64,000 nucleotides of DNA from a virus. Taxonomy: Duplodnaviria > Caudoviricetes. The position numbers were made by a program, and so were the translations under genes. Under the pieces are notes generated by a model, which worked only from the letters and a program-made list of their open reading frames with translations, searched no databases and had not been told where the DNA came from. Below, piece after piece: positions 2,860-49,813 of the stretch; the stretch's first letter is position 1, and each line of letters begins with the position of its first letter. The stretch is from IMG/VR virus record IMGVR_UViG_2862830631_000005, positions 14,672-78,671 of that record; one strand, written 5' to 3'.

Positions 2860-2863
2860 TGCG

Positions 2864-6346: not shown

Positions 6347-6347
6347 G

Positions 6348-7205: not shown

Positions 7206-7276
7206 CAGGGTCGGAGGGATTCGAACCCCCATAAGCGGCTTTGGAGACCACGGTCCTGCCGTTGGACGACAACCCT
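7206..7276 (-). tRNA. tRNA-Trp(CCA)
   Basis: GTGGT-CT-CCA-AA-GCCGC. Confidence 0.9.
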
Positions 7277-28238: not shown

Positions 28239-28490
28239 TCAGGCGGCCACAGGCACAGCCTGAGTGAGCTCACGAATCTTGTCGATACGGAAGTCTCCCC
28301 ACCAGTCATCGGTCTCGGCGACATGCACCACAGGGGCCACCTCGAAGCCGCGCGCCTTCAACGCTGCAGCAGCCTCGTGATCCTGGTCGATCCGCACCTC
28401 CGTGAACATCACACCCCCCCGGGTCAACTGGCTCTTCGTGAGGTTGCACTTGTGGCAGTTCGGGCCAGTTGTGAACACAGTGACGGTCAT
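28239..28490 (-). CDS. nrdH: NrdH-like glutaredoxin
   Basis: CHKC active site; APVV; WGDFRIDKI. Confidence 0.88.
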   Translation of the reverse strand: MTVTVFTTGPNCHKCNLTKSQLTRGGVMFTEVRIDQDHEAAAALKARGFEVAPVVHVAETDDWWGDFRIDKIRELTQAVPVAA

Positions 28491-29509: not shown

Positions 29510-29530
29510 GGGTTACCTTCTTTCGTGCAG

Positions 29531-29565
29531 AACAAACAAGCCCCTCCGCGAAACACGCAGGGGCC
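29531..29565 (-). terminator. possible terminator between holin and lysB
   Basis: GCCCCTGCG/CGCGGAGGGGC followed by TTGTTTGTT. Confidence 0.45.
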
Positions 29566-29580
29566 GTTCGTTGTTAGGTG

Positions 29581-29889
29581 TCAGTCCTTGTAGGACGCGA
29601 TTAGGCGTTCAACCACATCTGGGTTCCGCGCCGCAGCGACAGCCGCCTCCGTAGCGATCTCCGGGTTGTTATCGATGGCGTTGAGAACCTGGTCCACGGT
29701 CGCCTCGTTGCGGACAAACCACGTCGCAGCACCAACCACGGCTGAGACACCGACAGCGATGGCGTGAATCCACGGCATGTCGCTGGAAGCGTCGATAGCC
29801 GCACCCAGTCCCTCCATGCCGGCGAACGACACAGAGAACGCCGCAACGGCCTTCTTAACCTCGCGGACGCGAGTCATGAACGTAGTCAC
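29581..29889 (-). CDS. holin
   Basis: Two hydrophobic segments ending ATWFVRN; between lysA and lysB. Confidence 0.75.
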   Translation of the reverse strand: MTTFMTRVREVKKAVAAFSVSFAGMEGLGAAIDASSDMPWIHAIAVGVSAVVGAATWFVRNEATVDQVLNAIDNNPEIATEAAVAAARNPDVVERLIASYKD

Positions 29890-32638: not shown

Positions 32639-34609
32639 TCACCCTGTGTCGATGTCGTACTGTTCCAACACCCACTTCCAGAACCAGTTTTCGGTTGGTG
32701 TCACCACGACAGGGACATCATCAGCTGGCCGGCGAGGAGTTCCTTGGTATGCCTCCTCGACCTTCTCCTTCATCTGTGAGGCCGCGTTCGGGCTCACCCA
32801 CCACTGCCCCTTCAGGTAAGGCAAGTCCTCCTGAGTGAGCACATATGTGGTGTTCTCGAAGTTCCACGCAATGTGGCTAGGGTCGAACAGGTCAGGCTCG
32901 TCGTAAGCCGTGTGATATTCCGACTTTCCCTTGTCAGCGTTCTTCATCGCCAACACGTTCGTGTGATCGGCAGGGGAGTCCGCCCAACCGTCGTACCGTC
33001 GCGCAAAGTCGATGACGTGCCAACGCGTATTCGTCAGGGTCGCTTCACCGATGGTTTCGCCGACCTCTACAGTCCCGATGCCACCGCCACCGCCAGTGGA
33101 GCGCAACGGATTACCGGTGAGGATAAACATCAGCTCATCCGCAGGCGGTGCAGTGTCGTCATCCCAGTGCAGTGCCAGCCAATGCGACACAACCTGCGCG
33201 CCCTGGGACTGAGCTAGGACGATCTTCTTCCCAGGCGTGCTCCGCACTGCGGCATCGAGCATTGCGACACCGTCAGAGATTGAGGTGCTCTTCAACGATG
33301 CGGGGTACTTGATCTGCACCATGTTGTACGGCGCGGATGCAAACCTGCCCTGGAACTTCTCAGGCATGTCGTTGTACAGGTTGAAGCACAGACCCGAAAG
33401 CGTGAAGACAGTCCCGGACTCGAACACCTGGAATGCCCGGCCAGCCATCATGTGCAGGTGCGACAAGTCAGCTGCCATCGCACCCGCCAGGCTGATAGCC
33501 GACCCAGCGAGGATAGAGTCGACACCACGGACAGACGCCACGATGCCGCCATAGAATGGCTGCGCCCCGTAGCCAACAATCAGCGGATTAGCGAGCGTTG
33601 CGCCCATGCTTCCGGTCTCCACCTCGACACCCGACATGCCGGCAGTAGGCGTAGCTAGAAGAGCTGCCAATGCGGAATCAGCCGGGATGTTCTCCCCGAC
33701 GAGCCCCGCGGCAGGTGCCTGCAGGTCAGCGGAGATCGCTGCGTCGAGTTCGTGCTCACCAGTGAGCGACGCCGTCACTGCGCTCAACTGGGAGGCCACA
33801 GAGCCTCGCTGCGACTGTCCGCCCGTCATGACCGACTTGAGGATCCCCAATGCAGCGCCGAGCGTTCCTGGGTAGCTCTGCGCCGCGGGAAGGCTGGCCA
33901 GTACGGGACGCAGGGATGCCGACATCGCCCCCTGGGGGGTCAGCGGATACATCTCGAAGGCCGCGCCGGCATAGTCTGCACCACTGACGCGGCTCGCGGT
34001 GAACGTCACCGACGACGCTCCAGGTGCATAGCCGACGACGCCCTGACAGTACTGACCAACGTCCATGTACGTGATCAGCGTCTGGTTGTAGTCAGACACC
34101 GCGGTCGAGAACAACGGCTCCATGTGGCCGGCGTGATGGATCATCCGCTCAGCCGCCGATGACATAGTCAACGAGAACGTCGAACCGGACTCAGTTCCCG
34201 CCGCGATCGTGTGGCCGCCAACACTGTCAACGCCGCGATACAGGGTCGCCTCAGCGTTGATGCGGAACACTGCAGAGGTGCTCTCCAGAGTCCACTCGAT
34301 ATACACCGGGTGGGTGCCGCCTACTGGATTCGCCAACACGAAATGCTGAATGTGTCCAGTGCTCGACAAACCGGTGTCGTTGTCACCCCACGCCATCGGG
34401 AATGGCGTCATCTCGGTGCCATTCCACTGCACCGTGTAGTCGATCGTGCCAGTGTTACTGGTGGAGTAGCCGATGATGGTTACGACCAGAAGGTCGTAAG
34501 GCATGGTCGTGCCAGCGGCGAAGTCTGACGTAGTGTTGTACGCGCTGCCGCTGAACTCTAGGTAGTCGCCCCCGGTGAGGCTGGCGGAACCAACATGGGA
34601 GATAGGCAT
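32639..34609 (-). CDS. minor tail protein with C-terminal PE-PPE/cutinase-like hydrolase
   Basis: YPAS...AQSQGA...LTGNP...YDGWADSP...HTAY. Confidence 0.75.
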   Translation of the reverse strand: MPISHVGSASLTGGDYLEFSGSAYNTTSDFAAGTTMPYDLLVVTIIGYSTSNTGTIDYTVQWNGTEMTPFPMAWGDNDTGLSSTGHIQHFVLANPVGGTHPVYIEWTLESTSAVFRINAEATLYRGVDSVGGHTIAAGTESGSTFSLTMSSAAERMIHHAGHMEPLFSTAVSDYNQTLITYMDVGQYCQGVVGYAPGASSVTFTASRVSGADYAGAAFEMYPLTPQGAMSASLRPVLASLPAAQSYPGTLGAALGILKSVMTGGQSQRGSVASQLSAVTASLTGEHELDAAISADLQAPAAGLVGENIPADSALAALLATPTAGMSGVEVETGSMGATLANPLIVGYGAQPFYGGIVASVRGVDSILAGSAISLAGAMAADLSHLHMMAGRAFQVFESGTVFTLSGLCFNLYNDMPEKFQGRFASAPYNMVQIKYPASLKSTSISDGVAMLDAAVRSTPGKKIVLAQSQGAQVVSHWLALHWDDDTAPPADELMFILTGNPLRSTGGGGGIGTVEVGETIGEATLTNTRWHVIDFARRYDGWADSPADHTNVLAMKNADKGKSEYHTAYDEPDLFDPSHIAWNFENTTYVLTQEDLPYLKGQWWVSPNAASQMKEKVEEAYQGTPRRPADDVPVVVTPTENWFWKWVLEQYDIDTG

Positions 34610-35413: not shown

Positions 35414-35782
35414 TTAGATCTCGGCGGTCGGGTCGTAGACGCACTTCCACTCGTCCTCCGGAAGCAGCACCGGCTCGGTACTGAAGGTTGGGCTCCCCAG
35501 ACCGCTGAACTCCCACAACGGAAGTCCGGCCGAGTTCGTGATCCTTGTAGCTGAAATCCCAGTCCTGTGGTTGCGTAGAATCGTCCCCTCAGGCGAACCT
35601 GTCCACAGAAGCTTCGCCTTAGCGCACGCGTCGCGAGCCATCTGTCGAACTGCAGACATCACGTCGTCCGACGACCCGGCCTGCAGCGCCGTCTGGAGGT
35701 CTTCGGATGGCCCAGTGGTGTAAAGGTTGTGGTCAACCTGTGTTGCGTACGCGTCGTACGCGATGTCGATATCGCTGATCAA
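35414..35782 (-). CDS. hypothetical tail-module protein
   Basis: Coupled to the minor tail gene. Confidence 0.65.
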   Translation of the reverse strand: MISDIDIAYDAYATQVDHNLYTTGPSEDLQTALQAGSSDDVMSAVRQMARDACAKAKLLWTGSPEGTILRNHRTGISATRITNSAGLPLWEFSGLGSPTFSTEPVLLPEDEWKCVYDPTAEI

Positions 35783-37599
35783 TTCGTGACTCCTGTCCTG
35801 GCGATTCCCCAGTACGTCTTCGCGCCAGAGCCCTCGCCAGTGATCAAGCTGGAGGCAGCTGAAGGCGAGTAGTAGCCGAGCTGCACCCAGTCGTTCGCGT
35901 CGAGGTATAGCGACACGGAGGCGAAGATTCCCTCCGGGTAATCCGGTGAGTAGTAGGTATCTCCACCGCCGGTGATCCTGGTTCCAGAGAAGTGGCCGAC
36001 CGGCTGTCCGATGTACATCTCGGGAGCATCGTTGTGGTAGAGGATCAGCGACAGGTTGTTCGGCGTGTTACCAGCGAGGGATACGCGCGCATAGACGGTG
36101 TACCAACCCTTCACCGATACGGTGAACTTTCCAGTTGTGAAGTCGTACAGGATGTCCGACGTGCTGGCGTAGACGTTGTCGAAGAAGTTGTCAGGGAATA
36201 GGTGTGTCCCGCTGGAGATGGACAGCTCTGCGGTGTCGGCGCGGAACATGCGAGCACCGGATCCGGTTACCTCGGCCGGCTGGTTGTCACCGCCAGCGAA
36301 TGCCCACATCGTGCCGGGTGGAATGGTTCCAGACGCAGAAGCGTAGGCGAATCCCAACCCACCAGTACCGCGGTACGACATGCCGACCTGTGAGGTGGTG
36401 CCAACCTCGGTGTGCGTGAGGATGACCTTGCTGCCCTCTAGGAGGCGGAAGACGCGCAAGCCGCCGATCGTTCCACACTCCAACGCGTACAAACCCTGTG
36501 CCTTGTAGCTGAAGCCTGTTGTCTTCGTTGCCCAGATGATGCGGGTGCCGCCAACTACGCAGCCGAGCTCTGCGCGGTACTTCTCCATCGACGCGTACAC
36601 GTACGTATCACCGGCAGCGTTCTTGCGTCCGTGGATCTCATTGCGTCCACTGTTGCCCAGGAATGTGACCGGCGCTGAGCCAGACACCATCCAAATCTTC
36701 TGGTAGTCGGTCGCGGTCGCCAAAGCGTTGTACACGTAGGCATCTGTCGCGTCCGTGTCGTTGACTGAATGCCAGTCGGCGCCGACACCGTTGACGATCT
36801 CAAAGTGGCCGCCACCGCCAGTGCGGATGTGCGTGAAGTCCGATCCGAACGTAGAACCGCTAGGTAGAGCGGTGAAGTCCACCAGGAAGGACACGCCGCC
36901 GACAGCCTGGTTGTTCTGATTGCTTTGCAACGCAGTCACCTGCGCACTCAGCGCCGAGATTGTCGACGCCGCATCCTGCATCGCCTGCTGCGCCTGGTCG
37001 TGATCGAACAGGTTGCCAACCCAGCCGAAGAAGCTGGTCACGATATTGTCGATGGTCTGCTGAATGTCGTAGCGGATCTGCAGTCCCCACGTTCCAAGGT
37101 CTGTGGTGTCACCGTCCTCGACGCCGCTGAGAACCTCGATGATGTCGCCGATGATTGGGACCTGCTGAAGCATCTGAGCAAACGCTTGTGCAGCCGCCTG
37201 AATGGCCGCGATGAGGGCGTTGAAGAACGTGCCCAGATCGTTGTAGTCGCCGTCCTCAACGCCAGTGATGACTTCGATCAGCTCACCGAGGAACGGCACC
37301 TTGCCCAGCGTGTTCAGCAGTTCGGACGTGTGTCCGATCCCTGACTGGTCAACGTCCGGGAAGAGCTTGGCACTGAAAGCCGCGAGGGCCGCATGAATGA
37401 TCCCCTTGGAGGCATCGACACCCTCGAACACCTGGTCCGAGTATCCGGACATCTGTCCGCGTACTTCGGCCTTCTTGGCGGCCTCAACGTTTTCCCGAGT
37501 CCGATTAGCGAGGACAGAAAGCCCTGCGCCAACAACCGCGCCGTCATGGCCGGTGATGTCGTAGCCAGAGGGATCGCTACCCGAAGGGATAGCACCCAT
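35779..37599 (-). CDS. minor tail protein
   Basis: Duplicated IEVxxGVEDGDxxDLGT motif; beta-rich C-terminus. Confidence 0.85.
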   Translation of the reverse strand: MGAIPSGSDPSGYDITGHDGAVVGAGLSVLANRTRENVEAAKKAEVRGQMSGYSDQVFEGVDASKGIIHAALAAFSAKLFPDVDQSGIGHTSELLNTLGKVPFLGELIEVITGVEDGDYNDLGTFFNALIAAIQAAAQAFAQMLQQVPIIGDIIEVLSGVEDGDTTDLGTWGLQIRYDIQQTIDNIVTSFFGWVGNLFDHDQAQQAMQDAASTISALSAQVTALQSNQNNQAVGGVSFLVDFTALPSGSTFGSDFTHIRTGGGGHFEIVNGVGADWHSVNDTDATDAYVYNALATATDYQKIWMVSGSAPVTFLGNSGRNEIHGRKNAAGDTYVYASMEKYRAELGCVVGGTRIIWATKTTGFSYKAQGLYALECGTIGGLRVFRLLEGSKVILTHTEVGTTSQVGMSYRGTGGLGFAYASASGTIPPGTMWAFAGGDNQPAEVTGSGARMFRADTAELSISSGTHLFPDNFFDNVYASTSDILYDFTTGKFTVSVKGWYTVYARVSLAGNTPNNLSLILYHNDAPEMYIGQPVGHFSGTRITGGGDTYYSPDYPEGIFASVSLYLDANDWVQLGYYSPSAASSLITGEGSGAKTYWGIARTGVTN

Positions 37600-37602: not shown

Positions 37603-38064
37603 TTACTCCTGTTTTGGCTTACTGCTGATGTAATTCACCAGCGTGATCAGCTTCTTGATCTCGCCCTCGTACTGCTTCGCGAACTTCGCGCGCTCCTCGT
37701 CGGACCCAACGGAATGGATCTTCTTCAGGAGTTCCGCGTACTCCGGGTGCTCATCGGCGAGCATCTCGAGAACCTCTTCGGCCGCCTGCTCCATCGTCTG
37801 CGGTTCAGCGTCCGCAGGCTTCTCGTCAACAATCTCGGCCGGCTGGAACTGCCCACCCCCGACAGCCCACTTCGTCGCGAGCTCGGGGTGCCATCGAATC
37901 CCCAAGTCCCAATAGAGCTCAGAAGTTGGCTCCCAGGACTGGATCACAGCGCCAGGCTGATTGGGGTGAACACCAGGTCGCGGGTCCACGAACCCAACGC
38001 CCAGAAGCCACGCCAATCCCTTCGGGTGGTCAGGGTCGGGTGGATGCACATTGAAAGGTGCCAT
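37603..38064 (-). CDS. minor tail protein (DUF2744-like)
   Basis: YWDLGIRWHPEL; position in the tail module. Confidence 0.7.
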   Translation of the reverse strand: MAPFNVHPPDPDHPKGLAWLLGVGFVDPRPGVHPNQPGAVIQSWEPTSELYWDLGIRWHPELATKWAVGGGQFQPAEIVDEKPADAEPQTMEQAAEEVLEMLADEHPEYAELLKKIHSVGSDEERAKFAKQYEGEIKKLITLVNYISSKPKQE

Positions 38065-38116
38065 AAGTCTGCTCCTACACTACTTTCTATTCTAGCAAAC
38101 TAATTAGCGCACCTAG

Positions 38117-39853
38117 TTATGCGATGAGGTGGACGCCGATGTTCTGAACGATGTCGCGGATCTTCTTCGCGAGACGGGCGATCCGCTCACCAACGCTCAT
38201 CGCAGCCTTGTTCTGGCCGAACTTCGCCTGAACGGTCAACGGTGTATCCCCGGAGTGATCCCAGGACGGGATGATCTCCTCGCACTGGTTGACGAAAATG
38301 ATGTTGTGGTATCCGCGAGAGGTCGAACCAACGCGGGAACCGATCTCGAAGTGCGAGCCGGGGATGATCCAACTGTTGCCGTTCATCGAGATGAGATGCG
38401 AAGTCTCAGAGCGCGTTGCAAGGAACCCACCACGCAGCGCTGCGATGGCACTCAGGCTCCACACATTGTTCTCAGCGCCCTGCTGGTAGACCTCCCAGAG
38501 ATGCACCCAGCCGAGCTGCTTTGCGCGGCCTACGTTCTTCCAGTCAATCCACGCCAGGATCGTCCCCACCAGGAACGGCATGATCACGTCCGCCGCGATG
38601 TCGCCGGCTGAGGAGAAACCGCCAAGTAGGAAGTACCCCAGGATGTTTCCGGTGGTCGAGATGATCAACCGCGCGATAGCGTCAGCTGCCGGGTTGTCAC
38701 CACCGATCACAACATTCGGCGCGGTAGCTGGACTCCACGTCAACTCCGATGTTTCCATCGGAGTCCATGAGTTGTCCCTGACTACAAGCCAGGGAGCCTG
38801 GGCAAGGGTGGCCAACCACCCCGATCCGTAGTACTCGTCAGGGTAGTAGGTCTCATCGTCTGCGATCGTCCTCGCAGTGTCCTCAACGAACCCGCCGACA
38901 TACTGAACAACGCTGCGCGCCATTCCATCGACAATCGATCCGCCAAGGAAAGTTCCGCCGAGAGCCTCGTTGTAGTAGCCGGAATCGTCGTCAAGCCAGA
39001 AGACGAGTGCACCGTTCTTTGGCTGATCAACGAACAGCAACCCATCCTCGGTCTCACCTTCGTCGGTGAAGCAGCGGCGGTACTTGAGGGTCAGCTGCGC
39101 ATCATCCAAAGCATCAGCGAGAACCGAGTCGATCGGGTTCATACGGGTGCCCAGGACGGTCCACAGCGACGAGTCATCTAGTGGGAGGGCCTTAGCCTTA
39201 ACGTGGACCTGCCAGTTCTCCCACTGGCCTGGAGCCCACCCAATCCACTCGGACAGATCGAATGGATCATCCGGCAGCGTCCACAAATTGCCCTCGCGGC
39301 GAATGAGATTCAGCAAGATCATGGTAGAACAGGCCCACTTCGCAGGGCCCAAAATAGGTAGCACCCTCGGCCACTGGAAGAGACCAAGTGGCAGAGCAGG
39401 ATTCGGGGGTCCTAGCAAGAACTGCAGGAACTGCAAGTCGTCGTTGAACGTCAGTTCCATATAGTGGATGCCGTCACGCTGCTTCTTCGCGTGATGGTGC
39501 AGAAGGCCCGTCCAGCGCAGCTTCCCGCCGAACATATCCACGCGGATTACTACGTTCTTGCACTGATTAGGATCGTTTGGGATCTCCCGCATCCACTCCG
39601 AGATGTAGTGGTCGAAACGCAACTCCATGACCGCGGTGGTTGAGACGTTCTTCTTGAACGGGAACGATGCTCGAATGGTGTCGTTGTAGTGGACGCGGCC
39701 GAAGTACTCCAAGCCTTCGGATCCATCAGCAGGGTTGCGGTAGAAGGTGATAGTCGGCTTAGCCGCGCGCATCCATGCGAGTTCCTGACGCCAAGAGGCG
39801 ACATTGGTCTCGATAGAATCTAGTGCCTTAGCACGCTCAAGCGTGAGGGTCAT
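38117..39853 (-). CDS. minor tail protein (baseplate hub, Gp37-like)
   Basis: PNPALP...QWPR...GPAKWA; typical mycobacteriophage post-Dit gene. Confidence 0.85.
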   Translation of the reverse strand: MTLTLERAKALDSIETNVASWRQELAWMRAAKPTITFYRNPADGSEGLEYFGRVHYNDTIRASFPFKKNVSTTAVMELRFDHYISEWMREIPNDPNQCKNVVIRVDMFGGKLRWTGLLHHHAKKQRDGIHYMELTFNDDLQFLQFLLGPPNPALPLGLFQWPRVLPILGPAKWACSTMILLNLIRREGNLWTLPDDPFDLSEWIGWAPGQWENWQVHVKAKALPLDDSSLWTVLGTRMNPIDSVLADALDDAQLTLKYRRCFTDEGETEDGLLFVDQPKNGALVFWLDDDSGYYNEALGGTFLGGSIVDGMARSVVQYVGGFVEDTARTIADDETYYPDEYYGSGWLATLAQAPWLVVRDNSWTPMETSELTWSPATAPNVVIGGDNPAADAIARLIISTTGNILGYFLLGGFSSAGDIAADVIMPFLVGTILAWIDWKNVGRAKQLGWVHLWEVYQQGAENNVWSLSAIAALRGGFLATRSETSHLISMNGNSWIIPGSHFEIGSRVGSTSRGYHNIIFVNQCEEIIPSWDHSGDTPLTVQAKFGQNKAAMSVGERIARLAKKIRDIVQNIGVHLIA

Positions 39854-39871
39854 CTTGGATCAAACCTCTAG

Positions 39872-40864
39872 TTAGAGAACGCCAATGGGGCGCGACCACG
39901 GCCTCGTGTACCACTTGGGAATCTCCAGGCGCATCGCATAGCCGGCGACCGCGTCGCGAACCTTGACCGGGATGGTTGAGTAAGTCCCACCAGGGATCGG
40001 GTACAGCAAGTCCTGTCCCTTCCAGAGGCCCTGGAGGTGCATCCTGTTGGCTGCGAGCAGGGTCTGGACTCGCGGATCCGAGTCAGCGACGCAGCCTGCG
40101 TCGACTGGAAGAAACGGCAGTTCGACGGTGCGGCCGGAATCCATTACGCCGCGCGCGTACTCCTGGTTTCCGAACGAGAAATCAGGAAGTCGCCATCGGG
40201 CCTGATCGGTAAGAGTCCACTTCGGCCACACCGGGACATCGCAATCGACATCGAGGCGCACCGAAGTCTTCCCGATGCTTCCGTCGCCCTCCCACTCATA
40301 GAAGTCGGATGGCCCCACGAAGAATGGCAACTCGGCTGCCACCGTCATCACAACGGTCGACATGGCGTAGAGAGCCGGATCCTTCCCCTCCCATGAAGCT
40401 GACTCGTATGCCTGCGGTTCCTCCAGGAGGCGAACCTTGAGGTCGCGATAGCCATCCGACGTGGTGAAACGAATCGTGCTCTCCTGCACGTAATCCCATG
40501 CGAAACGCCACTTCGAGTCGATGGTCCTCCACGTCTCAGGGTCGTCGTCGTCGGCGAAGATGTTGACCGTGAAGACGACATCGCGTCGCTCCCAGCGAAA
40601 GTCAACGAATGTCTGGCCGAACGCTCCAGGTAGCCACAATGACTTCACCGGGGCGTCGATTGCACCCTTCAGGTTCGGCATGAGCTCGACGCCCTGGTCG
40701 CCCTTTCCATGGCCAGAGATCACGAAGTGCTCTCCATGGACGCCGAAGATCTCAATCCTGGCGGTGCGCTCCGAAAACTGGCCTGCCCCAGCGGGGAATG
40801 AACCAGTGGGAGGTAGCGGTCCACCGCCTAGCTGAATGGGGAGTAGTTCACTTACCTTTCCCAC
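39872..40864 (-). CDS. distal tail protein
   Basis: GDQGVEL...DAPVK...RDLKVRL...WYTRPW. Confidence 0.82.
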   Translation of the reverse strand: MGKVSELLPIQLGGGPLPPTGSFPAGAGQFSERTARIEIFGVHGEHFVISGHGKGDQGVELMPNLKGAIDAPVKSLWLPGAFGQTFVDFRWERRDVVFTVNIFADDDDPETWRTIDSKWRFAWDYVQESTIRFTTSDGYRDLKVRLLEEPQAYESASWEGKDPALYAMSTVVMTVAAELPFFVGPSDFYEWEGDGSIGKTSVRLDVDCDVPVWPKWTLTDQARWRLPDFSFGNQEYARGVMDSGRTVELPFLPVDAGCVADSDPRVQTLLAANRMHLQGLWKGQDLLYPIPGGTYSTIPVKVRDAVAGYAMRLEIPKWYTRPWSRPIGVL

Positions 40865-40879
40865 ACCAGCCCCTCTCTA

Positions 40880-42559
40880 CTAGTTAATGTCGACCGCGTA
40901 CGCGTTGAGCTGGTCGAACTCGGCGTAGGACTGCCACGAGTAGAGGCCGAAGATTTGCTCGTTATGCGACGTGGTGAAGCTGCCAACGGGATGCCAGTCA
41001 GTAGCCCCGTCAAAGCGGAAGAACGCGGTACGCTTGGACCCCTCGACACGCATCGCCAACCACACCCACGTGTCAGTGAGGTCTGTTCCGTCACCGATGT
41101 TCATCACGAACGGCTGGTCGAAACCGTCGAAAGCCTTGACCTGCCAGTTGTTTACAGATGCCCTCACGAGTGAGACATGAGTAGCGCCGCCGAAGTATCC
41201 GTCCGTTCCCGACCCGGAAACCATCAACCCAGCAGATAGGTCGTTGAACTCTCCGCGGATCCGCATCTTCGTCTCAACCCAGTAGTTCTCGGGAAGGAAG
41301 ACATACTTGCGCGCAATACGCATATCCTGACCAGGCTCAGTTGCAGCAGTTGGGAACGAGATGGTCGTCCCCGTGCACACCGCCTGGGTCCTGTCGGGTG
41401 GCTGGGTCCACAAGTCGGTGGGGACAGTGCCGATCGGATAGTCAAGGTTGTCCTCAAGCAGGACCACATTGCGCATGGTCTGCGGGACGGGTGCTCGGTC
41501 AGGCTTGTCGTCCAACCACATGCCGGCCGACGCGGACACCTTCAGCGTCGCTGGCGTCATGGTGCCCTGGTTGTACTGACCGATCGGCATCACAACCTTG
41601 ACGTGACTGTTGAACCGAATTGGGTCAGCCGTGAAGAACCGGTACATCGTCTGGTGCGTGCCCGCGGTGATATCAGTGTCCGGGGCGCGGCCAGCTGGAT
41701 ATCCACCCTCAGGCATGGCATACCAACCGCCAGTGAAGAAATCCTCGGTGCCTGAAGCCATTACAGCGGCGATGAGCTCGCCGTCAACGAAGATCTGCAC
41801 GTTCCCCTCAAGGAACGTCGCCTCAAAATCCTGCGCAGACGACACCGACAGGTAGAGGTGCTCAAGCTGGCCCGACCCATCAATATCAACGACAGTCAGC
41901 TTGCCGCGCGCCGGGAACGCATCATTCTTGACGCTGGCAACCTTGTACGTCTGGAACGCCCGCGGAGCATTGTCGTAGCGGAACTTGACATGCCCGTACA
42001 CCGCGCCAAGGTCTGAGCTTGTCTTGTTGATCATCTCAACGCGCATGTAGCGGCTGAACGGAGCGAACAAGTTTCGGTACGCCGAAGCCTGGCCAGAGTC
42101 GAATCCACGCTTCGTGCGTCCAACGCTCGGGGTGGAGAACTCACCACCGCGCGGCCCGTACATGAAGAAGTCGTTGATGGACAAGTCGATGGCCGGCACA
42201 GTGTTGTTATCCAGGTAGACGCGGATTCGTCCGCCGTCCTCAACGAACGAATCGCGCGTCATGTCACCGCCGTTCGCGGCGAACCACACCTGCTCAAGTA
42301 CGCCAGAACCGTGTGCCTCACCGAGGATCAGAGGCTTCTCACCAGCTGGGGCGGTAGCGTCAGCACGCGCAACACCAAGCTCCTGCGCCGTCAGGACAGT
42401 TCGTCCATGCGCAACGGCGAACCCCGGTGGAGTGACGCCAGCAGACCCGGATTCGAGATATCCAAACCTGGCCTCATGCTTGTTGACCTGCTTGGCGATA
42501 TCGTTCACAGCGTCAGCTGGGAGGTACTCGCCATCAATCCAGTCGATCTTGAGAGTCAT
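40880..42559 (-). CDS. DUF2961/GH172-like glycoside hydrolase with tail-type N-terminus
   Basis: GSGVLEQVW, IRVYLD, DFF, PFSR; FLEGNVQIFVDGE; SGTEDFFTGGWY; YRFFTADPIRF. Confidence 0.78.
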   Translation of the reverse strand: MTLKIDWIDGEYLPADAVNDIAKQVNKHEARFGYLESGSAGVTPPGFAVAHGRTVLTAQELGVARADATAPAGEKPLILGEAHGSGVLEQVWFAANGGDMTRDSFVEDGGRIRVYLDNNTVPAIDLSINDFFMYGPRGGEFSTPSVGRTKRGFDSGQASAYRNLFAPFSRYMRVEMINKTSSDLGAVYGHVKFRYDNAPRAFQTYKVASVKNDAFPARGKLTVVDIDGSGQLEHLYLSVSSAQDFEATFLEGNVQIFVDGELIAAVMASGTEDFFTGGWYAMPEGGYPAGRAPDTDITAGTHQTMYRFFTADPIRFNSHVKVVMPIGQYNQGTMTPATLKVSASAGMWLDDKPDRAPVPQTMRNVVLLEDNLDYPIGTVPTDLWTQPPDRTQAVCTGTTISFPTAATEPGQDMRIARKYVFLPENYWVETKMRIRGEFNDLSAGLMVSGSGTDGYFGGATHVSLVRASVNNWQVKAFDGFDQPFVMNIGDGTDLTDTWVWLAMRVEGSKRTAFFRFDGATDWHPVGSFTTSHNEQIFGLYSWQSYAEFDQLNAYAVDIN

Positions 42560-42568
42560 TCTTTGTCC

Positions 42569-45500
42569 TTAAACGCCGTACTTGCCGATGTAAGGCATCG
42601 CTTCCTGCGCAGCGGTTGTGCGCTGCTGACGCTTGAACTCGTCAAGGTTCGTCAGCTGATAGACGTTGTCGCCGTTGTGAACACGGCCCTGAACCATCGA
42701 AGGAACGCCCGAGGTATCTGGCTGGGCCGGCAGTAGGGGAGTGCCAGATGCACTTGCAGTTGATCCGTTCGTCGCAGTTCCCACGAGCAGCGACGACAAG
42801 ACGTTCGTCAAGCCAGTTGCGATCTGGCCGCCGATCTGGAATCCGGCCTGAATGCCAGCCCCGGCGAGCTGCCCACCAGCGCCACCAGCGAGTCCGCCTG
42901 CGCCGGCAGTCGCGCCCATCGAGGCTCCAGACGCGGCCATCGATGCAGCGGTAGCCACGAGAGACCCGACATGGTTCCACGCACCCTGAATGCCTGAACT
43001 CAACGCAGGGAGGTTGTGCTCCTGCGATGAAGGTGCAGCACCAAGGCTTGCCCGAGGGTCAGCCGACTGCGACGCATCAGCGCCAGGCTGTGCCGAACCA
43101 ACGCCGCCGGTTCCCGAGAGCAGCCCAGCCAGGCCACCGACGTTCGTCAGTGCGTCCTGCACGCCAGGGAGAGCACCAGGGTCTGGAGCGGGAGCAGTCG
43201 CCCCAGGCCCCGGTGCACCTCCGGTCGAAGGGGTGGTGCCAGCACCAGCCCCAAGTGTGAGAGGCCCGGGAGTAGCGGGCTGCGGAACGCCTGGCTGCTG
43301 GCCTGGCTCAGGTGGAGCGGGAGGCTGCGGCGTCTGCGGGAGCGGACCTGGAGTCTGCCCCGGGTAAGGCTGCGGCATCCACCAGCCGCCACCCTCGAAC
43401 TGGCCGGCGTTCACCAGATGCATGAAGTCCAGGCCGTACTTCTTCACGGCGTAGTCGCGCATCATGAACTCGCCCTTGGACCCCATCAGTGGGACAGAGT
43501 CCGAGCGCCCAGTGCCAGGCCCGGTGATCAGTCCACCGCCGGCCTTACCTGGAATAGGTAGCCCAAGCTGTGGCGGATTCCACTGCGCGAAGACCCGGGC
43601 ACCCCTACCCTCTGGTCGCACATCGAAAGGCGTGTAGCTGCCACCGCGTGGAAGTAGGAGCTCATTCTCTGCTCGCCCGAAGTGCGAGAGAGACTCGCGT
43701 CCAGCACGTCCAGACAGCCACAACCCGTGGGAGCCGCGCGGTACAAGCAGCTGCATTACATACGGCGAAGGACGCCCACCAGCGCCGACACTGGTTGATG
43801 TGTATCCGGGATCGGAGAATGTGCGGCCGAGCAACCTGGTCAGGTCGTCATTGGGGTGGATGTTCCCGAAGCCGGCTGCGTCGAGCTCGCGGTTGACAAC
43901 GAAGTCGTCCGGTACGCGGTTTGCCTTCCCGAACGCGCTGTCAATCCCGGCTACCTGCCGCAGATGCTCTGATAGCGCGTCACTGCCGACCAGGTGACCC
44001 TTGCCGCTGGCAAGCGCTCGGAGCGTGCCGTTGACACCAGACCCCTTTGTGTACCCGTAGATGGCGTCGAGCTCGGCCGGAGTGAACGGGTTGTCCGACT
44101 TGCTGTACGGCCAGATATCGTTCGCGTACGCCCGCGCCCTGCCGAGATCCATCGCATCCGGGGCGGTGTGCGCGTGCGCAGGGGTGGCACCCTTCAGGAA
44201 TCCGCGACGTGCAGCACTGCTCGCCACCGAGCCTGCACGTGTTCCCTTCAGTGCCGCGCCACCAGGAACGAACGCCGACGCGATGTCAAACGCGGACATA
44301 CCGGCCGCGCGAGCAGGGTTACGACCCCACTCATCCCAGTGGACGGTGTTCTTACCGAACTGCCTCCACGCATCCCCAACAGATGGGGAACCGCCTCCAC
44401 CGAGCCCAACAAGTGGTGCTAGACCGCGTGCAGCGCCACCGACCGCCATGGCTGGGTTGCCGACAGCCTGGTAGATCCCCTTACCTGCATCCCAAGCCGA
44501 GGACCCGACGCCGCCGAGGAAGTCTCCGACCTTTCCGAAGAACCCTCCACCCGAGAAGCGTGGTAGCCGGCGAGCGTTCAGATCATCGAACAGCTGCTTG
44601 CCGTAGTAGCGGGTGGCATCCCTATTGGTGACGAACTCACCACGCGACAGCCACGCCAAACCACTATTCGGATGACCACCGCTCTTGAACCCGTGCCCCT
44701 GGCCGATCTGGTTTGGAACGCCAGTGTTCGGGTCCTGCCCGTACTGCGACTTCGTGTAGGCAATCGCCGCGACGATCTGAGACCACGGGTCATTGATCGA
44801 TCCGCCGACAGCGTTGTAGGAGTCAAACGTCGATGGCAGGAAGTTGAACAGACCCATGACCTGCTGGGTTCCGCCCTGTCCGTCGGAGTCATTCCCGTTG
44901 AACGAGAACGGATCACCGCCAGACTCAGTATCGATCTGCTTGACGAGAGCGTTCTCCCACGCGGCAGCGTTGGTGATTCCAAGCTGAGGCCCGTACATCT
45001 GCAGCGCCTGACGGATCATGGCGCGATAAGCGTTTCCGCCCTTCTTGCCAGGTGAAGCGAGACCACCGCCCTGCTGAAGAAGGTTGTCGTTGAATGCGAT
45101 CGGCTGGATAGGAAGACCAGTCGAAGGGTCAACCTCGATAGGCAGCTGCCCGTTGCCGTACAGGAACTGGTTCAGGTACTGCCCTGATCCACCGTCACCA
45201 ACGACATTGCCGAGTCCGCCGATGCCCTGCTGGAGCAGCTGCGAGAAGACATCCCCACCGCCGCCACCTGAGGAACCGCCAAGGTTCAGCCACCCTGACG
45301 CTGCCTGGCCGGCGCCATTGCCCACCTGTCGGGTGAGATCAGCAAGCCAATTGAAGTTGATCCCAGTGAGGTCGGTGAGCAGCTGCGTGCCGATCCCGAG
45401 CAGGCTGGAACCGATATTCCCAGCCTGGCCAACCAGGAACTGGGCGATGTTCGAAGGCTGCATAAAGTCGGGCAGCCCAGCGATATTCCCGAAGAGGCCG

Positions 45501-48500
45501 CCGCTGGAATCTCCAGTCAGCATGTCAGCAGTGACGCCGCCAGGTAGTCCACCCGGGTACTGCTGCATCAAACCTGGCAGCATGTACTGCTCGGCCCCGG
45601 TTGGGTAACCACCTCCAGTGGTCTTCACGTGAATGTGATCGCGATGACCCTGCGTATCGCCAGAACGGCCCAACGCATGGCCGTCCCCACCCACTGGCTG
45701 CCAGAAGTCCTGCCAGATGGTGGAATCCACGCCCATGGCAGCACCGTTGGCCTGAAGCCACTGGTTGATCTGATCTCCGAGCGCCTTACCCTCTGGGGTG
45801 TTGTAGTTCGGGATCATGATGTCGATGGCCTTGCCAGACGGGTGATCCTCGATGGCGTCCTCGCGGTAGCCGCCGATGTTCGCGATCTGTGGGAACATCG
45901 CTTCGACCGCGCGCTTCACGCCGATCGTGTTGACCTGCAGGTTGCCCTCACCGCCCAGGCGTGACTGCAGCGGCACGCCTGCCATCTGACCGCCGACGCT
46001 GGCCAGTGGGTTCATCAACCCGGCCACGGGGATCCCGTTGATCTGCGGCATGCCGGCAGCTGCGACCACGCCGGGGATTACCGGGGTGATGCCGGCGTTA
46101 TTGACGCCCGGGTATCCGCCAGTTAGGTGCGTGCTCGACACGGTCGACGCAGGGGGTGCCGAAACAGGCCCTGGCTGCCCCTGAGGAGCTCCAGAACTGT
46201 TTGCTGGGGTGGTTGGCTTAGGGGACTGAACTGGAGGCGCAGGAGTGGCCTCAGGGGCCTTCGGTGAAACTCCCGGAGTCAACCCAAGGAAGTCCTTCGC
46301 ATATGCGTCGAAGAACCCACGAGGACGTGAACCTGGAGCACCACTCTGGCCGAGGTCATACCCATGCTGGGCATCCAAAGCGCTACGCGACAACTTCGTG
46401 TTCGCGTACGGTGGCTTCTCCCAGTTAGGAGTGATATCAACCGGCCCAGCCTTAGTGGCAAGGTTGTCCTCATACCAGTGCCAGCCCTGCTTGATTGAGT
46501 CAATGGCAGCACGGCCGAAAGTCACGCGCTCATCCATGCGCGTAGAGCTGTTGGCAACACCCGCCTTGTTCTTAGGCTGAGGGCGATCCAAAATCGACGG
46601 AGTGACAGGACCGAACCATCCACCCGAGTCGAAGCGCGGAAGCTCCATACCATTCAGGCGGTTAAAGAAGTCGACGCCGTAGTACTTCACCGCGGCTGCA
46701 TTGGTCACATGCTCACCGCGCGACAGCATCGCCAGGTTCGCATCATCGCGAGGGCCGCCGACGCCACCAACAAGGCCACCATCGGCGAACTTGTCAATGT
46801 ACTTCTCGGTACCGTCAACAGTGAGGTTCGTGCGGAAACGTCCATCACCGTTCGGTGCGACAGTCCCATCCTCGGCCGGCACAGCAGGCTTGCGGTCAGT
46901 GATGACGACCGCATTGCCGGCATCATCGATATGAACCTCAGAAACACCAGAGCCGGCGAACACGCCAACACCTGGCTTCACCGACCCGAGGCCGTTGGCA
47001 AGTGTGTTCACCTGCTGGGCCTGCGCGGCACCAGCGCTCAAGCTGTTCGGGATGTCGCGCAACGCAGATAGCGACGCAAAGAGATCGCCCTGGCCGGTCG
47101 ACTTCACCACGCCCTGAAGGTCATCCGGGAGGTTTCCAGTCGCACGCTTTCCAGCGATAACCCCCTGCTTAGCTACTTCAGGTAGCCAGGACGGAATGTT
47201 TTGGTCAACGAGCATCGCTGAGTACGCAGCGCGAACCTTGTCGAGTGCCTTCTGGTCCGTACTGGCTGCAAGTGCTAGATCACGAGCACTGACGCCGTAC
47301 TTCTCCCAGATATCACCCGACTTCTTCCAAGAATCCGAGTTCTGGACGGCCTTCGTTGCCATGTCGTTGCCGCGCTGAAGAACGCTCTGACGCTCGGCGT
47401 CGTTGATCGGCAGGAGGGCCCGACCGAACTGGTTAGGGCCAGCGAGCCCAGAACGGGCAGCCGCATCAATCGTGTTGACCTGGCCCTGGCCCTGGAACGT
47501 GAACGTCTGGGCAGCCTGCAACGCGGCAGCCTTGTCAGCCGAACCCGTAGTCTGATCTACGGTCGTCTGCAGCTGCTTCAGAGCCTCGTTATGGGCATCG
47601 GCATCCTGCGCAGCCTTACGGTGAGCATCACCGAGAGCGCTGATACCCAAGGTCAGTGCGGAGATTGCAGCCGAGAAAGCAAGACCTGGGCCGATGAACA
47701 ACCCGAGCCCCTTCAGGGCGCCGAGAAGCGATCCACGCCCAGCGCTACCGATCTTCCCGGCAGCGACGACGGCTGCCCCGCCGGCATTCTCGAACTGCTT
47801 CGTCAGATCCTTCGTTGACGACAACGCTGGGAAGGCAGCCTTGTCGACATTCTTCACAGCCTCGGCCGACAACTTGATCGGCTTAGCGGCACCAGCTGCA
47901 ACCCCGCCCAGCGACTGCAAATTCGCCTTGAACTCGTTCAGCCCACGGTTCATCGGACCGAAGAAGTTCGAGGTGCGGTGATACTGGGCCAGACCGCCCA
48001 TCACCTTGCCGTAGTTCTGCCACGCAGTGGTCAAACCCTCAACGATCGGGCGAGCAGTACGCCACGACAGATAAGCGATCAGCAGGTTCTTCGCCAGGCC
48101 AGTGTTCTTCTCGACCCATCCGGCGATCTTCGAGAACGTTCCCAGCACCGAGAAGAGGACAGTGGACCATTCGCGTGCGGTCTCAACCATGTCCCCGATG
48201 AACGGACGCATATCCTTGACGGCGGACAGAATCTGACCGACAAGATCGCGTGCACGTGAGAAGTAGTTAGTCAACCCCTGCTGGGTCGAAGGCTCCTTCA
48301 GGAAGTCAGCCAGCCTCGACGTAGCGCGCTCGATGGTGGTGATGAAACCGCCCTCGAACCCGGTGGTCTGCGCGAATGCACGCGACACCGAGGAGATGAT
48401 CGAAGCGATGTTCAACAGCGTGTTGCCAAGCGCAGTAAGCGAATCAAGACCAGAGTCGATCCACTCATTCAGCGTCCCGTCATCGGAAACTCGCTGAGTG

Positions 48501-49813
48501 AATGCATCGAACCTGTCGAGCACGCGCGTGAATGCGTCGGCGATGCGCGGAAGGAACTGCGCTGAATCGGAAGTCAGGCGCAGAACGCCGTCGATCAACG
48601 GCTGGAAGGCAGCGGAGAAACGCTGCAAAGCAGTGCCATTGGCACCAAAAATGCGGTCCAGGAACGACTGATTCTGATCAGTCCCCAAAGACGCGGCCAG
48701 AGCCTTCAGATTGGCATTCAGGCCGGAAGCAGTACGACTCAACCCACGATCAAGCGTGGGCAGCGCCTTGTTACCAAGATTCGTGATCGTACGATCCAAA
48801 TCCTGGAACAGGTTGTTCTGAGAGTTGCCAGACAGGCGATTCCATGCGCCCTTGAAGTCCAGAAGCGCGCGCACAGCAGACTGTGCATTCGGAGCAAGCT
48901 TCTCCATGGCCTTGTCGAGCTCGGAGATGTTGCCCTTCTCGACAGTGTCGAGGGCGTCAGAGATGCGATCGAGCGCATCAACTACAGAGTCGGCGTTCTG
49001 CACGCCCTTCTGGTTTGCGTCGAAAGTATCCTCGGCAACGCGCTTCGCGCGGACCTGCACATCCTGCAGATGGTCAACAGCCTGCAGGTAGCTCAACTGA
49101 TCACGGCGAAGTTCCAGCAGCGAACGCTGTCCGCCCTCGCGCAGGCGCTGAGCAGCCTCCTGCACGCCCAGAACCGCGTCAGCGACATTCAGCGACGAGC
49201 GACGGTTCTCGCGGTTAAGATCCTGGATCTCGCGGATCGTGTCGCGGACGGCCGAACGGTAATCACGGTACGAGCGCTCAAGGTCGCGATTCGCCCGCTG
49301 CTGGTCACGAGCGTTCTGCTCTGCATTCTTCGAATCAGTCGCGTACGCCTGGAATGCGGCCCCGAGACCGCGCATACCAACCGCAAGGGCACCCACCGAT
49401 GCGGCAGCACCACCCAACAATCCGGGCAGCGCAAAAGCGCTCTTCCCCAACGCATCCAACGCAGACGTTGCGGAACCAGCCGCATACGCGAGCGCTGGAA
49501 GCGCATCAAGTCCGATTACCTTGACATTGAGGCGAAGAGCCCGAGAAAGCGAATTACGCTTGAAAATGTGCTCAACCGTGGACAGATCACGGCGAAACTG
49601 CTGAAAGTCAGCACGAACGGGAACGGTGACAGGATCGAGCTCCTGCCGGCGGCGCCACGCGGCTACCTCAGCGGAAGCCCCCGCCATGTTGGCTTCAAAG
49701 TCGATCTCGACAGGATCGAAGCGCATGGCAGCGAGCTTCGTATCAGCCTCTACCTTGAATCGCTTCAGGGTAGGGATGATTCGAATGGCGGCTTCACCAG
49801 CCAACACAGCCAT
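42569..49813 (-). CDS. tape measure protein with peptidase-like, transglycosylase and ADP-ribosyltransferase domains
   Basis: 2414 aa following the tail chaperones; Ala-rich helical N-half; HPSGKAID/HIH; IDTESGGDP/GLFNFLPSTF; R...STS...ENE. Confidence 0.93.
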   Translation of the reverse strand: MAVLAGEAAIRIIPTLKRFKVEADTKLAAMRFDPVEIDFEANMAGASAEVAAWRRRQELDPVTVPVRADFQQFRRDLSTVEHIFKRNSLSRALRLNVKVIGLDALPALAYAAGSATSALDALGKSAFALPGLLGGAAASVGALAVGMRGLGAAFQAYATDSKNAEQNARDQQRANRDLERSYRDYRSAVRDTIREIQDLNRENRRSSLNVADAVLGVQEAAQRLREGGQRSLLELRRDQLSYLQAVDHLQDVQVRAKRVAEDTFDANQKGVQNADSVVDALDRISDALDTVEKGNISELDKAMEKLAPNAQSAVRALLDFKGAWNRLSGNSQNNLFQDLDRTITNLGNKALPTLDRGLSRTASGLNANLKALAASLGTDQNQSFLDRIFGANGTALQRFSAAFQPLIDGVLRLTSDSAQFLPRIADAFTRVLDRFDAFTQRVSDDGTLNEWIDSGLDSLTALGNTLLNIASIISSVSRAFAQTTGFEGGFITTIERATSRLADFLKEPSTQQGLTNYFSRARDLVGQILSAVKDMRPFIGDMVETAREWSTVLFSVLGTFSKIAGWVEKNTGLAKNLLIAYLSWRTARPIVEGLTTAWQNYGKVMGGLAQYHRTSNFFGPMNRGLNEFKANLQSLGGVAAGAAKPIKLSAEAVKNVDKAAFPALSSTKDLTKQFENAGGAAVVAAGKIGSAGRGSLLGALKGLGLFIGPGLAFSAAISALTLGISALGDAHRKAAQDADAHNEALKQLQTTVDQTTGSADKAAALQAAQTFTFQGQGQVNTIDAAARSGLAGPNQFGRALLPINDAERQSVLQRGNDMATKAVQNSDSWKKSGDIWEKYGVSARDLALAASTDQKALDKVRAAYSAMLVDQNIPSWLPEVAKQGVIAGKRATGNLPDDLQGVVKSTGQGDLFASLSALRDIPNSLSAGAAQAQQVNTLANGLGSVKPGVGVFAGSGVSEVHIDDAGNAVVITDRKPAVPAEDGTVAPNGDGRFRTNLTVDGTEKYIDKFADGGLVGGVGGPRDDANLAMLSRGEHVTNAAAVKYYGVDFFNRLNGMELPRFDSGGWFGPVTPSILDRPQPKNKAGVANSSTRMDERVTFGRAAIDSIKQGWHWYEDNLATKAGPVDITPNWEKPPYANTKLSRSALDAQHGYDLGQSGAPGSRPRGFFDAYAKDFLGLTPGVSPKAPEATPAPPVQSPKPTTPANSSGAPQGQPGPVSAPPASTVSSTHLTGGYPGVNNAGITPVIPGVVAAAGMPQINGIPVAGLMNPLASVGGQMAGVPLQSRLGGEGNLQVNTIGVKRAVEAMFPQIANIGGYREDAIEDHPSGKAIDIMIPNYNTPEGKALGDQINQWLQANGAAMGVDSTIWQDFWQPVGGDGHALGRSGDTQGHRDHIHVKTTGGGYPTGAEQYMLPGLMQQYPGGLPGGVTADMLTGDSSGGLFGNIAGLPDFMQPSNIAQFLVGQAGNIGSSLLGIGTQLLTDLTGINFNWLADLTRQVGNGAGQAASGWLNLGGSSGGGGGDVFSQLLQQGIGGLGNVVGDGGSGQYLNQFLYGNGQLPIEVDPSTGLPIQPIAFNDNLLQQGGGLASPGKKGGNAYRAMIRQALQMYGPQLGITNAAAWENALVKQIDTESGGDPFSFNGNDSDGQGGTQQVMGLFNFLPSTFDSYNAVGGSINDPWSQIVAAIAYTKSQYGQDPNTGVPNQIGQGHGFKSGGHPNSGLAWLSRGEFVTNRDATRYYGKQLFDDLNARRLPRFSGGGFFGKVGDFLGGVGSSAWDAGKGIYQAVGNPAMAVGGAARGLAPLVGLGGGGSPSVGDAWRQFGKNTVHWDEWGRNPARAAGMSAFDIASAFVPGGAALKGTRAGSVASSAARRGFLKGATPAHAHTAPDAMDLGRARAYANDIWPYSKSDNPFTPAELDAIYGYTKGSGVNGTLRALASGKGHLVGSDALSEHLRQVAGIDSAFGKANRVPDDFVVNRELDAAGFGNIHPNDDLTRLLGRTFSDPGYTSTSVGAGGRPSPYVMQLLVPRGSHGLWLSGRAGRESLSHFGRAENELLLPRGGSYTPFDVRPEGRGARVFAQWNPPQLGLPIPGKAGGGLITGPGTGRSDSVPLMGSKGEFMMRDYAVKKYGLDFMHLVNAGQFEGGGWWMPQPYPGQTPGPLPQTPQPPAPPEPGQQPGVPQPATPGPLTLGAGAGTTPSTGGAPGPGATAPAPDPGALPGVQDALTNVGGLAGLLSGTGGVGSAQPGADASQSADPRASLGAAPSSQEHNLPALSSGIQGAWNHVGSLVATAASMAASGASMGATAGAGGLAGGAGGQLAGAGIQAGFQIGGQIATGLTNVLSSLLVGTATNGSTASASGTPLLPAQPDTSGVPSMVQGRVHNGDNVYQLTNLDEFKRQQRTTAAQEAMPYIGKYGV

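Follow-up and report, generated by a model that had tools for sequence, protein, structure and literature searches.

The best-described relative of the gene considered here comes from a bacterium that attacks other bacteria. As reported by Al-Jourani et al. (2023; PMC10115798), MycGH172 (GII36_05205), the DUF2961 homolog of Candidatus Mycosynbacter amalyticus, is an exo-alpha-D-arabinofuranosidase that frees arabinose from arabinogalactan (AG) and lipoarabinomannan (LAM), and it is a trimer by size-exclusion chromatography with light scattering (SEC-LS). The organism that makes it is a Saccharibacteria epibiont attacking mycolic-acid bacteria. Here, the starting point is a gene of the same glycoside hydrolase family (GH172) in the tail operon of a prophage. 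It lies at positions 40880 to 42559 of a 64,000-nucleotide stretch of DNA (the window), which is positions 14,672 to 78,671 of the IMG/VR virus record IMGVR_UViG_2862830631_000005. Its product, called P0001 below, is probably a tail-borne protein that binds and trims D-arabinan.

That phages can encode enzymes acting on the D-arabinan of Mycobacteriales is, of course, not new. The GH183 (DUF4185) endo-D-arabinanase of Gordonia phage GMA6 is one such enzyme (PMC10115798). As described there, however, it belongs to another family with another fold, is endo-acting, and is of the lysis-cassette type, while P0001 is a GH172 protein encoded in a tail operon, away from LysA and LysB. Nor are the GH172 family, its activity, or tail-borne glycosidases new. 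Krupovic et al. (2022; PMC8812541) reported DUF2961 homologues from each of the three domains "but not viruses," and noted that genes specific to viruses are absent from their surroundings. The parts of Al-Jourani et al. (2023; PMC10115798) that deal with phages report a GH183 and no GH172, and full-text literature searches returned no report of a phage GH172. A prophage GH172 thus contradicts the published claim that DUF2961 is absent from viruses and from viral gene surroundings (PMC8812541).

The protein and its family

The minus strand of 40880-42559 is a single intact open reading frame (ORF) of 559 amino acids, with an ATG start and a TAG stop; the plus-strand frame across the same positions is riddled with stops. 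An earlier reading, made by a model from the letters and translated ORFs and referred to below as the sequence-only reading, named no strand. It had proposed a GH172-like glycosidase with two candidate catalytic glutamates, and the strings that it quoted are all present in P0001: DWIDGEYLPADAVNDIAKQVN at residue 6, FLEGN at residue 249, and GTEDFF at residue 270. The parts of the gene are as follows.

40880..42559, minus strand: GH172 gene P0001, 559 aa, with an N-terminal segment, a double-jelly-roll core and a ConA-like C-terminal domain (Pfam, AlphaFold2)
42410..42559, minus strand: N-terminal segment, residues 1-50, a putative attachment or trimerisation segment (predicted local distance difference test, pLDDT, 34-54; one predicted helix, 15-31)
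41501..42424, minus strand: GH172 double-jelly-roll catalytic domain, residues 46-353 (VIA-align Z 28.2-28.8; Foldseek)
41807..41809, minus strand: codon of E251 (in FLEGN), predicted acid/base (aligned to alphaFFase1 E270 and DgGH172c E233; 26/26 rows)
41741..41746, minus strand: codons of E272-D273 (in GTEDFF), predicted nucleophile and adjoining essential Asp (aligned to alphaFFase1 E291-D292 and DgGH172c E254-D255; 26/26 rows)
40886..41482, minus strand: C-terminal ConA-like beta-sandwich, residues 360-558, a probable carbohydrate-binding domain (VIA-align, BFVD)

P0001 is a genuine GH172 protein by sequence, fold, and catalytic residues, as had been proposed. Its sole Pfam family is DUF2961 (GH172, PF11175), matched over residues 111-328 with a score of 111.1 bits, where 27 would suffice, and an E-value of 7.6e-32, well outside what chance would give. 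For its family, the Pfam accessions PF28588 and PF28589 are also precomputed. A PHROGs search with the whole protein gave no match, and a Pfam profile search of the complete host genome turned up no DUF2961 gene other than that of P0001. When solved structures were searched by sequence, P0001 matched alphaFFase1 (7v1v, E 6e-14), BACUNI_00161 (4kq7), and the D. gadei GH172 (8ah3); its identity to any solved GH172 is 18-22%.

The fold leads to the same family. An AlphaFold2 model built on 26 relatives (mean pLDDT 84.9; predicted template-modelling score 0.80) has an ill-defined N-terminus (residues 1-50), followed by a core rich in beta strands (53-349) and then by another beta domain (366-555), whose strands bear out the beta-rich C-terminal domain of the sequence-only reading. 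The top seven PDB rows in Foldseek are all GH172 entries (E 1.8e-16 to 4e-13). In VIA-align, the core (from about residue 28 or 46 to 353) is closest to 8ic8_A, the exo-alpha-D-arabinofuranosidase of Microbacterium arabinogalactanolyticum (Z 28.8, root-mean-square deviation (rmsd) 2.4, 283 residues aligned), followed by 4kq7 (Z 28.4), 7v1v (Z 28.3), and 8ah3 (Z 28.2). Thus, P0001 has the double-jelly-roll fold and the aligned catalytic residues in common with the solved enzymes (8ic8, ExoMA-type; 8ah3, DgGH172c/Dg79; 4kq7, BACUNI_00161; 7v1v, alphaFFase1). Those enzymes are described as about 370-450 aa long, with C-terminal helices or loops that join them into hexamers or dodecamers. Where they have this oligomerising region, P0001 has a 200-aa lectin-like domain.

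Predicted catalytic residues

The residues that do the chemistry in GH172 enzymes are described in some detail. In alphaFFase1, E291 is reported as the nucleophile and E270 as the acid/base, and activity is lost in E270A, E291Q, and D292A/N (Kashima et al., 2021; PMC8605356). Mutation of E233 and E254 in DgGH172c is likewise reported to abolish activity (Al-Jourani et al., 2023; PMC10115798), and the equivalent of the second glutamate in Dg67 is reported to have been trapped covalently as the nucleophile (2026 preprint, 10.64898/2026.08.13.744632).

HMMER alignments place E251, E272, and D273 of P0001 opposite E270, E291, and D292 of alphaFFase1 and opposite E233, E254, and D255 of DgGH172c (8ah3). 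The predicted acid/base therefore sits 21 residues upstream of the predicted nucleophile. All three residues, together with W279 (the counterpart of alphaFFase1 W298), are kept in 26/26 rows of the alignment of relatives. Because E251, E272, and D273 are so strictly conserved, the enzyme is predicted to be catalytically competent; here we lean slightly toward acceptance, this being part of the explanation of P0001 that we favor below.

Kinship with MycGH172 and the likely substrate

Substrate is a harder matter than family. The best guide is a protein called P0019 here, found in the cluster of P0006, which is a 622-aa "DUF2961 domain-containing protein" (QHN43218.1) and the single DUF2961 protein of Candidatus Mycosynbacter amalyticus. 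P0001 is 43% identical to it over residues 39-551 (E 2e-129), colinear across both domains. P0019 is probably MycGH172 itself, to judge from the organism, the family name, and the mass (66,249 Da, against a published 67,372 Da for the tagged MycGH172 monomer).

The two proteins share the order of GH172 core and ConA-like C-domain as well as the same catalytic Glu/Glu/Asp. They differ in setting, the one being a chromosomal gene of an epibiont, the other a gene in a phage tail operon. They differ also at the start, where about 95 residues of the epibiont protein (MARLPQPGGD...) have no counterpart in P0001, which has instead an unrelated N-terminus of 38 aa, and they fall in separate clades of the tree described below. 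As judged by sequence, P0001 belongs to a small two-domain GH172 subfamily that includes the epibiont protein. The sequence-only reading had guessed at an arabinan (LAM/arabinogalactan) depolymerase. The arabinan part of that guess is made stronger by a 43% homologue that fits MycGH172; "depolymerase" was an overstatement, as the characterised relatives are exo-acting trimmers.

A different sugar might, of course, be the target. In this alternative, P0001 would be a tail receptor-binding protein whose GH172 fold recognises something other than alpha-D-arabinofuranose (alpha-D-Araf), for example another furanoside, or binds without useful turnover. The distance from every solved GH172 leaves room for this, and in structure the C-domain comes closest to CBM66, a module that binds terminal fructofuranose; but the envelope of the mycobacterial host is rich in D-Araf, and the invariance of E251, E272, and D273 favors catalysis. 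GH172 is also reported to include alpha-D-fructofuranosidases (PMC8605356), against which must be set that the closest characterised homologue, 43% identical over its full length, is an alpha-D-arabinofuranosidase. The -1 subsite of alphaFFase1 is described as including W267, W298, and Y187' as well. The position of W267 (-1/+1 subsite) is T248/F249 in P0001 and varies within the subfamily, as might be expected if a different sugar were bound. On balance, we hold this alternative to be quite improbable.

Setting in the tail operon

The gene is wedged between two tail genes, where the sequence-only reading had seen an insertion between tape measure and distal tail genes. It starts 9 nt past the stop of the tape measure protein (TMP) gene, and stops 15 nt ahead of the GTG of a Dit-like gene. 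The neighbors are these.

42569..49813, minus strand: tape measure protein, 2414 aa, directly upstream (phrog_3547, E 0)
39872..40864, minus strand: Dit-like minor tail protein, 330 aa, GTG start, directly downstream (phrog_106, E 6.4e-82)
38117..39853, minus strand: Tal-like minor tail protein, 578 aa (Pfam Sipho_Gp37, E 3.6e-41; phrog_110, E 4e-164)

The nearest records are the Mycobacterium phages Nanosmite (classed under Reyvirus), MrMagoo, and GardenSalsa, whose minor tail genes are about 74% identical to those of the window in nucleotide sequence. The 330-aa, 578-aa, and 153-aa proteins of the window are 83%, 79%, and 67% identical to Nanosmite gp31, gp32, and gp33, respectively, and the two TMPs are 59.7% identical over their first ~610-620 residues. 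In Nanosmite, the TMP gene abuts gp31 directly, with no counterpart of P0001.

The window is phage-like throughout. Its genes are, in order, those for the small and large terminase, portal, protease, scaffold, capsid, connectors, major tail protein, chaperones, and TMP, then P0001, the minor tail proteins, LysA, holin, LysB, and the replication genes. LysA, holin, and LysB occupy 28487-31259, about 9.6 kb and eight ORFs away from P0001. The window itself is positions 43786-107785 of a 111-kb contig (C178) in a 6.23-Mb genome. Along this contig, the guanine-plus-cytosine (GC) content steps from 0.69-0.73 in the flanks (genome 0.694) to about 0.60 between ~28.9 and 108.5 kb, which marks out an integrated prophage some 80 kb long. 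The prophage is Reyvirus-like. An 18-nt direct repeat (contig positions 26673 and 108551) was considered as the attachment site; although it agrees with the GC step on the right, it falls 2.3 kb beyond that on the left, and was not accepted.

These positions bear on the view that P0001 is a soluble late enzyme, not part of the virion, which would be produced along with the tail proteins, be released at lysis and strip arabinan from wall or debris, either helping the burst or preventing progeny from sticking to dead cells. Its counterpart would then be the GH183 (DUF4185) arabinanases of actinophage lysis cassettes. In the account of Al-Jourani et al. (2023; PMC10115798), phage D-arabinan hydrolases are indeed known only from lysis cassettes. 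P0001, however, carries no DUF4185 (Pfam gives DUF2961 only), is not beside LysA, holin, and LysB, and sits with its narrow gaps between TMP and Dit. That its N-terminus lacks a tail-protein homologue would suit a soluble enzyme, as would a second mycobacterial copy (L013, below) outside a tail operon; that its relatives bear tail-fibre N-termini, and that its own C-domain is like the tips of fibres, would not. We think a soluble enzyme unlikely. Were P0001 merely that, it would still be a new compact D-arabinan-trimming enzyme for cell-wall analysis.

A third view makes the gene a moron, that is, an accessory gene expressed from the prophage that remodels the LAM or arabinan of the lysogen itself, perhaps to keep out superinfecting phages. 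In favor of this are the integrated state of the prophage, the lack of the gene in the nearest sequenced phage, and its being the host's only DUF2961 gene. Against it, no promoter-like site was found in window positions 38000-44000, and 9 nt upstream leave no room for one; the six terminator-like sites in the same interval are not above the number in shuffles (3.9, sd 2.0), so no flanking terminator stands out from chance. Further, the GC content of the gene (0.58-0.60) is that of the adjoining tail genes, and no signal peptide is obvious by eye. A moron is accordingly the least credible of the readings, and we give it very little weight.

One detail of the Dit-like neighbor deserves mention. 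It begins about 27 residues earlier than Nanosmite gp31, with no alternative in-frame start. That the longer N-terminus is a docking site for an extra GH172 protein is pure speculation.

The two ends of the protein

The C-terminal domain (residues 360-558) matches lectin-like structures in VIA-align. Best is the CBM66 structure 4azz_A (Z 18.8, rmsd 2.5, 157 aligned); C-terminal domains of GH43 enzymes (Z 16-18) and ERGIC-53-type lectins (about Z 17) are also matched. So is the central fibre gp20 of mycobacteriophage Douge (PDB 8zdp/8zdq), whose residues 690-878 superimpose with Z 17.6 and rmsd 2.6 over 170 residues; here the likeness is confined to the lectin-like tip, and there is no homology outside it. 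In BFVD, the domain resembles ConA-like domains of actinophage minor tail proteins. To judge from the model, it is a probable carbohydrate binder.

The variable part of these proteins is the other end. Pfam finds Mtd_N in the relatives P0004 and P0015, and the first 35-150 residues of P0002, P0004, P0015, P0059, P0063, P0065, P0069, and P0075 match PHROGs of tail protein, tail spike, tail fibre, or minor tail protein; the GH172 body of the relatives never matches a PHROG. Of these, P0002, P0004, and P0059 belong to the clade nearest to P0001. N-termini are swapped freely across the relatives.

This is the modular plan of tailspike and fibre depolymerases and of lectin-tipped fibres, in which a variable N-terminal adaptor carries an enzymatic or binding head and a trimer is expected. 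The head is where P0001 departs from it. A classical tailspike head is a beta-helix, whereas that of P0001 is a capsid-like double jelly roll, with an attachment to the virion that we infer.

Distribution of relatives

Proteins built like P0001 are rare. A word-indexed search of 5.8 billion proteins returned only 16 others, 14 of them full-length relatives with 34-51% identity. An exhaustive HMMER search over 1.84 billion representatives gave 998 matches at E<=1e-3 and only 36 at E<=1e-30; the architecture of GH172 plus C-domain therefore defines a small subfamily. In a survey of 185,579 species, one genome for each, 12 metagenome-assembled genomes of Saccharibacteria/Patescibacteria and one Mycolicibacterium sp. 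S2-37 gave full-length matches among the best 80 of 271 relative-encoding stretches. No match to P0001 was found in any of 36 genomes of the same genus; in 400 other genomes of the host family, eight have GH172 genes, all distant (25-28% identity). A full-length homologue was present in 4 of 301 genomes sampled from the Saccharibacteria class, and a metagenome scan found the full-length family only at loci of Saccharibacteria type (L083-L088). In 3/3 Saccharibacteria loci looked at, the GH172 gene lies among cellular genes (MarR, fasciclin, thioredoxin, FtsH, MurJ, LepA).

The copy in Mycolicibacterium sp. S2-37 (L013:7545-9524) encodes 659 aa with 38% identity to P0001. Its neighbors are phage replication genes: a class II ribonucleotide reductase (phrog_367, E 0), a polymerase exonuclease subunit, and an HNH gene. 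A quick maximum-likelihood tree (48 rows, 551 columns, support from the Shimodaira-Hasegawa-like approximate likelihood ratio test only) nests this copy within a Saccharibacteria clade, a placement that may point to gene transfer among the lineages of epibiont, phage, and host. P0001 itself forms a group with P0002 and P0003 (support 95), which P0004, P0059, and P0082 join next (96), set apart from the two Saccharibacteria clades; the deeper branching is not resolved.

Some Saccharibacteria carry further proteins of interest. In the genome that holds stretch L008 (G401), the first 64-103 residues of the MycGH172-type protein are found again at the beginning of three further ORFs, all large (612-727 aa) (C1:299182-299373, 715763-716056, and 1011749-1012012). 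Elsewhere, in a cellular neighborhood, the GH172 gene adjoins a full-length tailspike homologue (phrog_27786, E 3e-45, Phage_depo_C), and in another such neighborhood it adjoins two proteins of ~740 aa with tail-protein C-termini (the stretches concerned are L004:3750-6056 and L006:2981-7496). This suggests that Saccharibacteria epibionts carry a set of phage-fibre-like surface proteins.

Viruses yielded little. A tblastn search of 50,697 phage records matched only three faecal contigs labelled "Bacteriophage sp.," at 23-26% identity. The one of these that was looked at, MT835583.1 (L173, 7919-26683; "UNVERIFIED: Bacteriophage sp." in GenBank), was rejected as a phage GH172. Its DUF2961 gene lies beside SusC/SusD, two GH116, GH3, and GH20 genes in a Bacteroidetes polysaccharide-utilisation locus, and the contig is bacterial DNA in a virome set. 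A scan of IMG/VR with the family alignment gave 82 pattern matches and no relatives, though with the two peptide patterns used weak relatives may be missed. Thus, neither IMG/VR nor the 50,697 phage records, with one of the three weak matches looked at, supplied a bona fide phage relative of P0001. In BFVD, a GH172-like fold is seen in a single entry, of 367 aa and without a name.

Proposed role

What, then, might the protein do for the phage? In the explanation to which we give a little better than an even chance, P0001 is a tail-tip GH172 trimer of a mycobacterial prophage, acting on D-arabinan. It would be co-transcribed with the prophage tail genes, would most probably assemble as a trimer, and would most probably be attached to the tip of the tail by its short N-terminal segment. 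In that position, the lectin-like domain would bind D-arabinan (LAM, arabinomannan, or exposed arabinogalactan), and the enzyme would remove terminal alpha-D-Araf residues; the mechanism would be a retaining one in which E272 serves as nucleophile and E251 as acid/base. Such trimming would aid adsorption or passage through the envelope. P0001 may, in short, be a tool of the phage tail for gripping or trimming the mycobacterial wall.

Two points speak for the trimer. GH172 enzymes need a trimer, their minimal catalytic unit in the 2026 preprint's account, which completes the active sites, and MycGH172 is one. Further, phage fibres and spikes are usually built in this way, as trimers that have a variable adaptor at the N-terminus and a lectin domain at the distal end. 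In keeping with a place in the virion, the N-terminus of P0001 has by eye no obvious hydrophobic stretch of a signal peptide. Even so, the trimer state, the D-Araf specificity, the attachment to the virion, and the role in infection are all things that we infer.

Several observations weigh against the explanation. The association with the virion is read from gene position and family architecture, and the N-terminus, which should make the attachment, is silent: searches with residues 1-55 or 1-70 gave no PHROG at E<=10, a best E of 2 in tblastn against phages, sub-threshold leads only in the ESM Atlas (0.75), and no second copy in any other prophage or host ORF. The "tail-appendage-like" N-terminal segment of the sequence-only reading is thus not borne out. 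Most relatives sit in Saccharibacteria at cellular loci, and the second mycobacterial copy is outside any tail operon. As for substrate, it is read across 43% identity from a protein that is probably, but not certainly, MycGH172; the family's fructofuranosidases and the varying W267 position count here as well. Last, exo-acting enzymes take off single sugars, which makes a role in penetration uncertain.

This would nevertheless be a consequential protein. Little is known of the way in which mycobacteriophages recognise the mycolyl-arabinogalactan envelope and get across it. A GH172 in the tail operon would mark D-arabinan (LAM or AG) as a receptor or a barrier that the virion deals with on its own. 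It also links a phage gene with the host-attack enzyme of a Saccharibacteria predator of mycolata. The idea is readily testable with the aziridine activity-based probes that the 2026 preprint describes and with an existing substrate, para-nitrophenyl-alpha-D-Araf.

A bolder idea, which we regard as doubtful and offer tentatively, is that the trimeric "capsid-fold" arabinofuranosidase with its lectin tip is a mobile host-attack head, swapped between mycobacterial tailed phages and the Saccharibacteria epibionts that prey on mycolic-acid bacteria, each supplying its own N-terminal adaptor. If this were true, the phage copy would be the first virion-borne D-arabinan hydrolase. No DUF2961 protein would have been known before it from a bona fide virus, the family having been reported as missing from viruses and proviruses. 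Saccharibacteria, for their part, would employ proteins resembling phage fibres, in which one N-terminal module carries several different heads and which sometimes have tailspike homologues beside them, as organelles of attachment or feeding.

Other features of the prophage

Other proteins of this prophage, too, differ from what Nanosmite has. The 2414-aa TMP holds a domain of the ADP-ribosyltransferase exoenzyme type (PF03496, E 4.6e-14, residues 1906-2061; phrog_3895, E 1.9e-20). The segment around it, residues ~1760-2090 (about window 43540-44535, minus strand), shows R, STS, and ExE-like motifs in translation, is GC-rich (0.64-0.68 vs ~0.59), and is absent from the Nanosmite TMP. This transferase could be delivered at infection. 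Between the tail and lysis genes, a 656-aa protein (32639-34609, minus strand) without a Nanosmite counterpart has a C-terminal PE-PPE/cutinase-like domain (PF08237, E 1.7e-19, residues 435-600), and may be another esterase of the LysB type, in addition to the canonical LysB (28487-29509). A 606-aa minor tail protein (DUF7257; 35779-37599, minus strand) has only its first ~120 residues (52%) in common with Nanosmite gp34 (896 aa), the remainder being replaced; it is another swapped fibre head in the same tail.

Elsewhere in the window, 21 tRNA genes lie within 6.6 kb (704-7276, minus strand), together with a gene for an RF-1-domain protein (761-1114, minus strand; phrog_3122, E 2.5e-56). Such an array with such a protein is typical of cluster M mycobacteriophages, and we take the prophage to be cluster-M-like.

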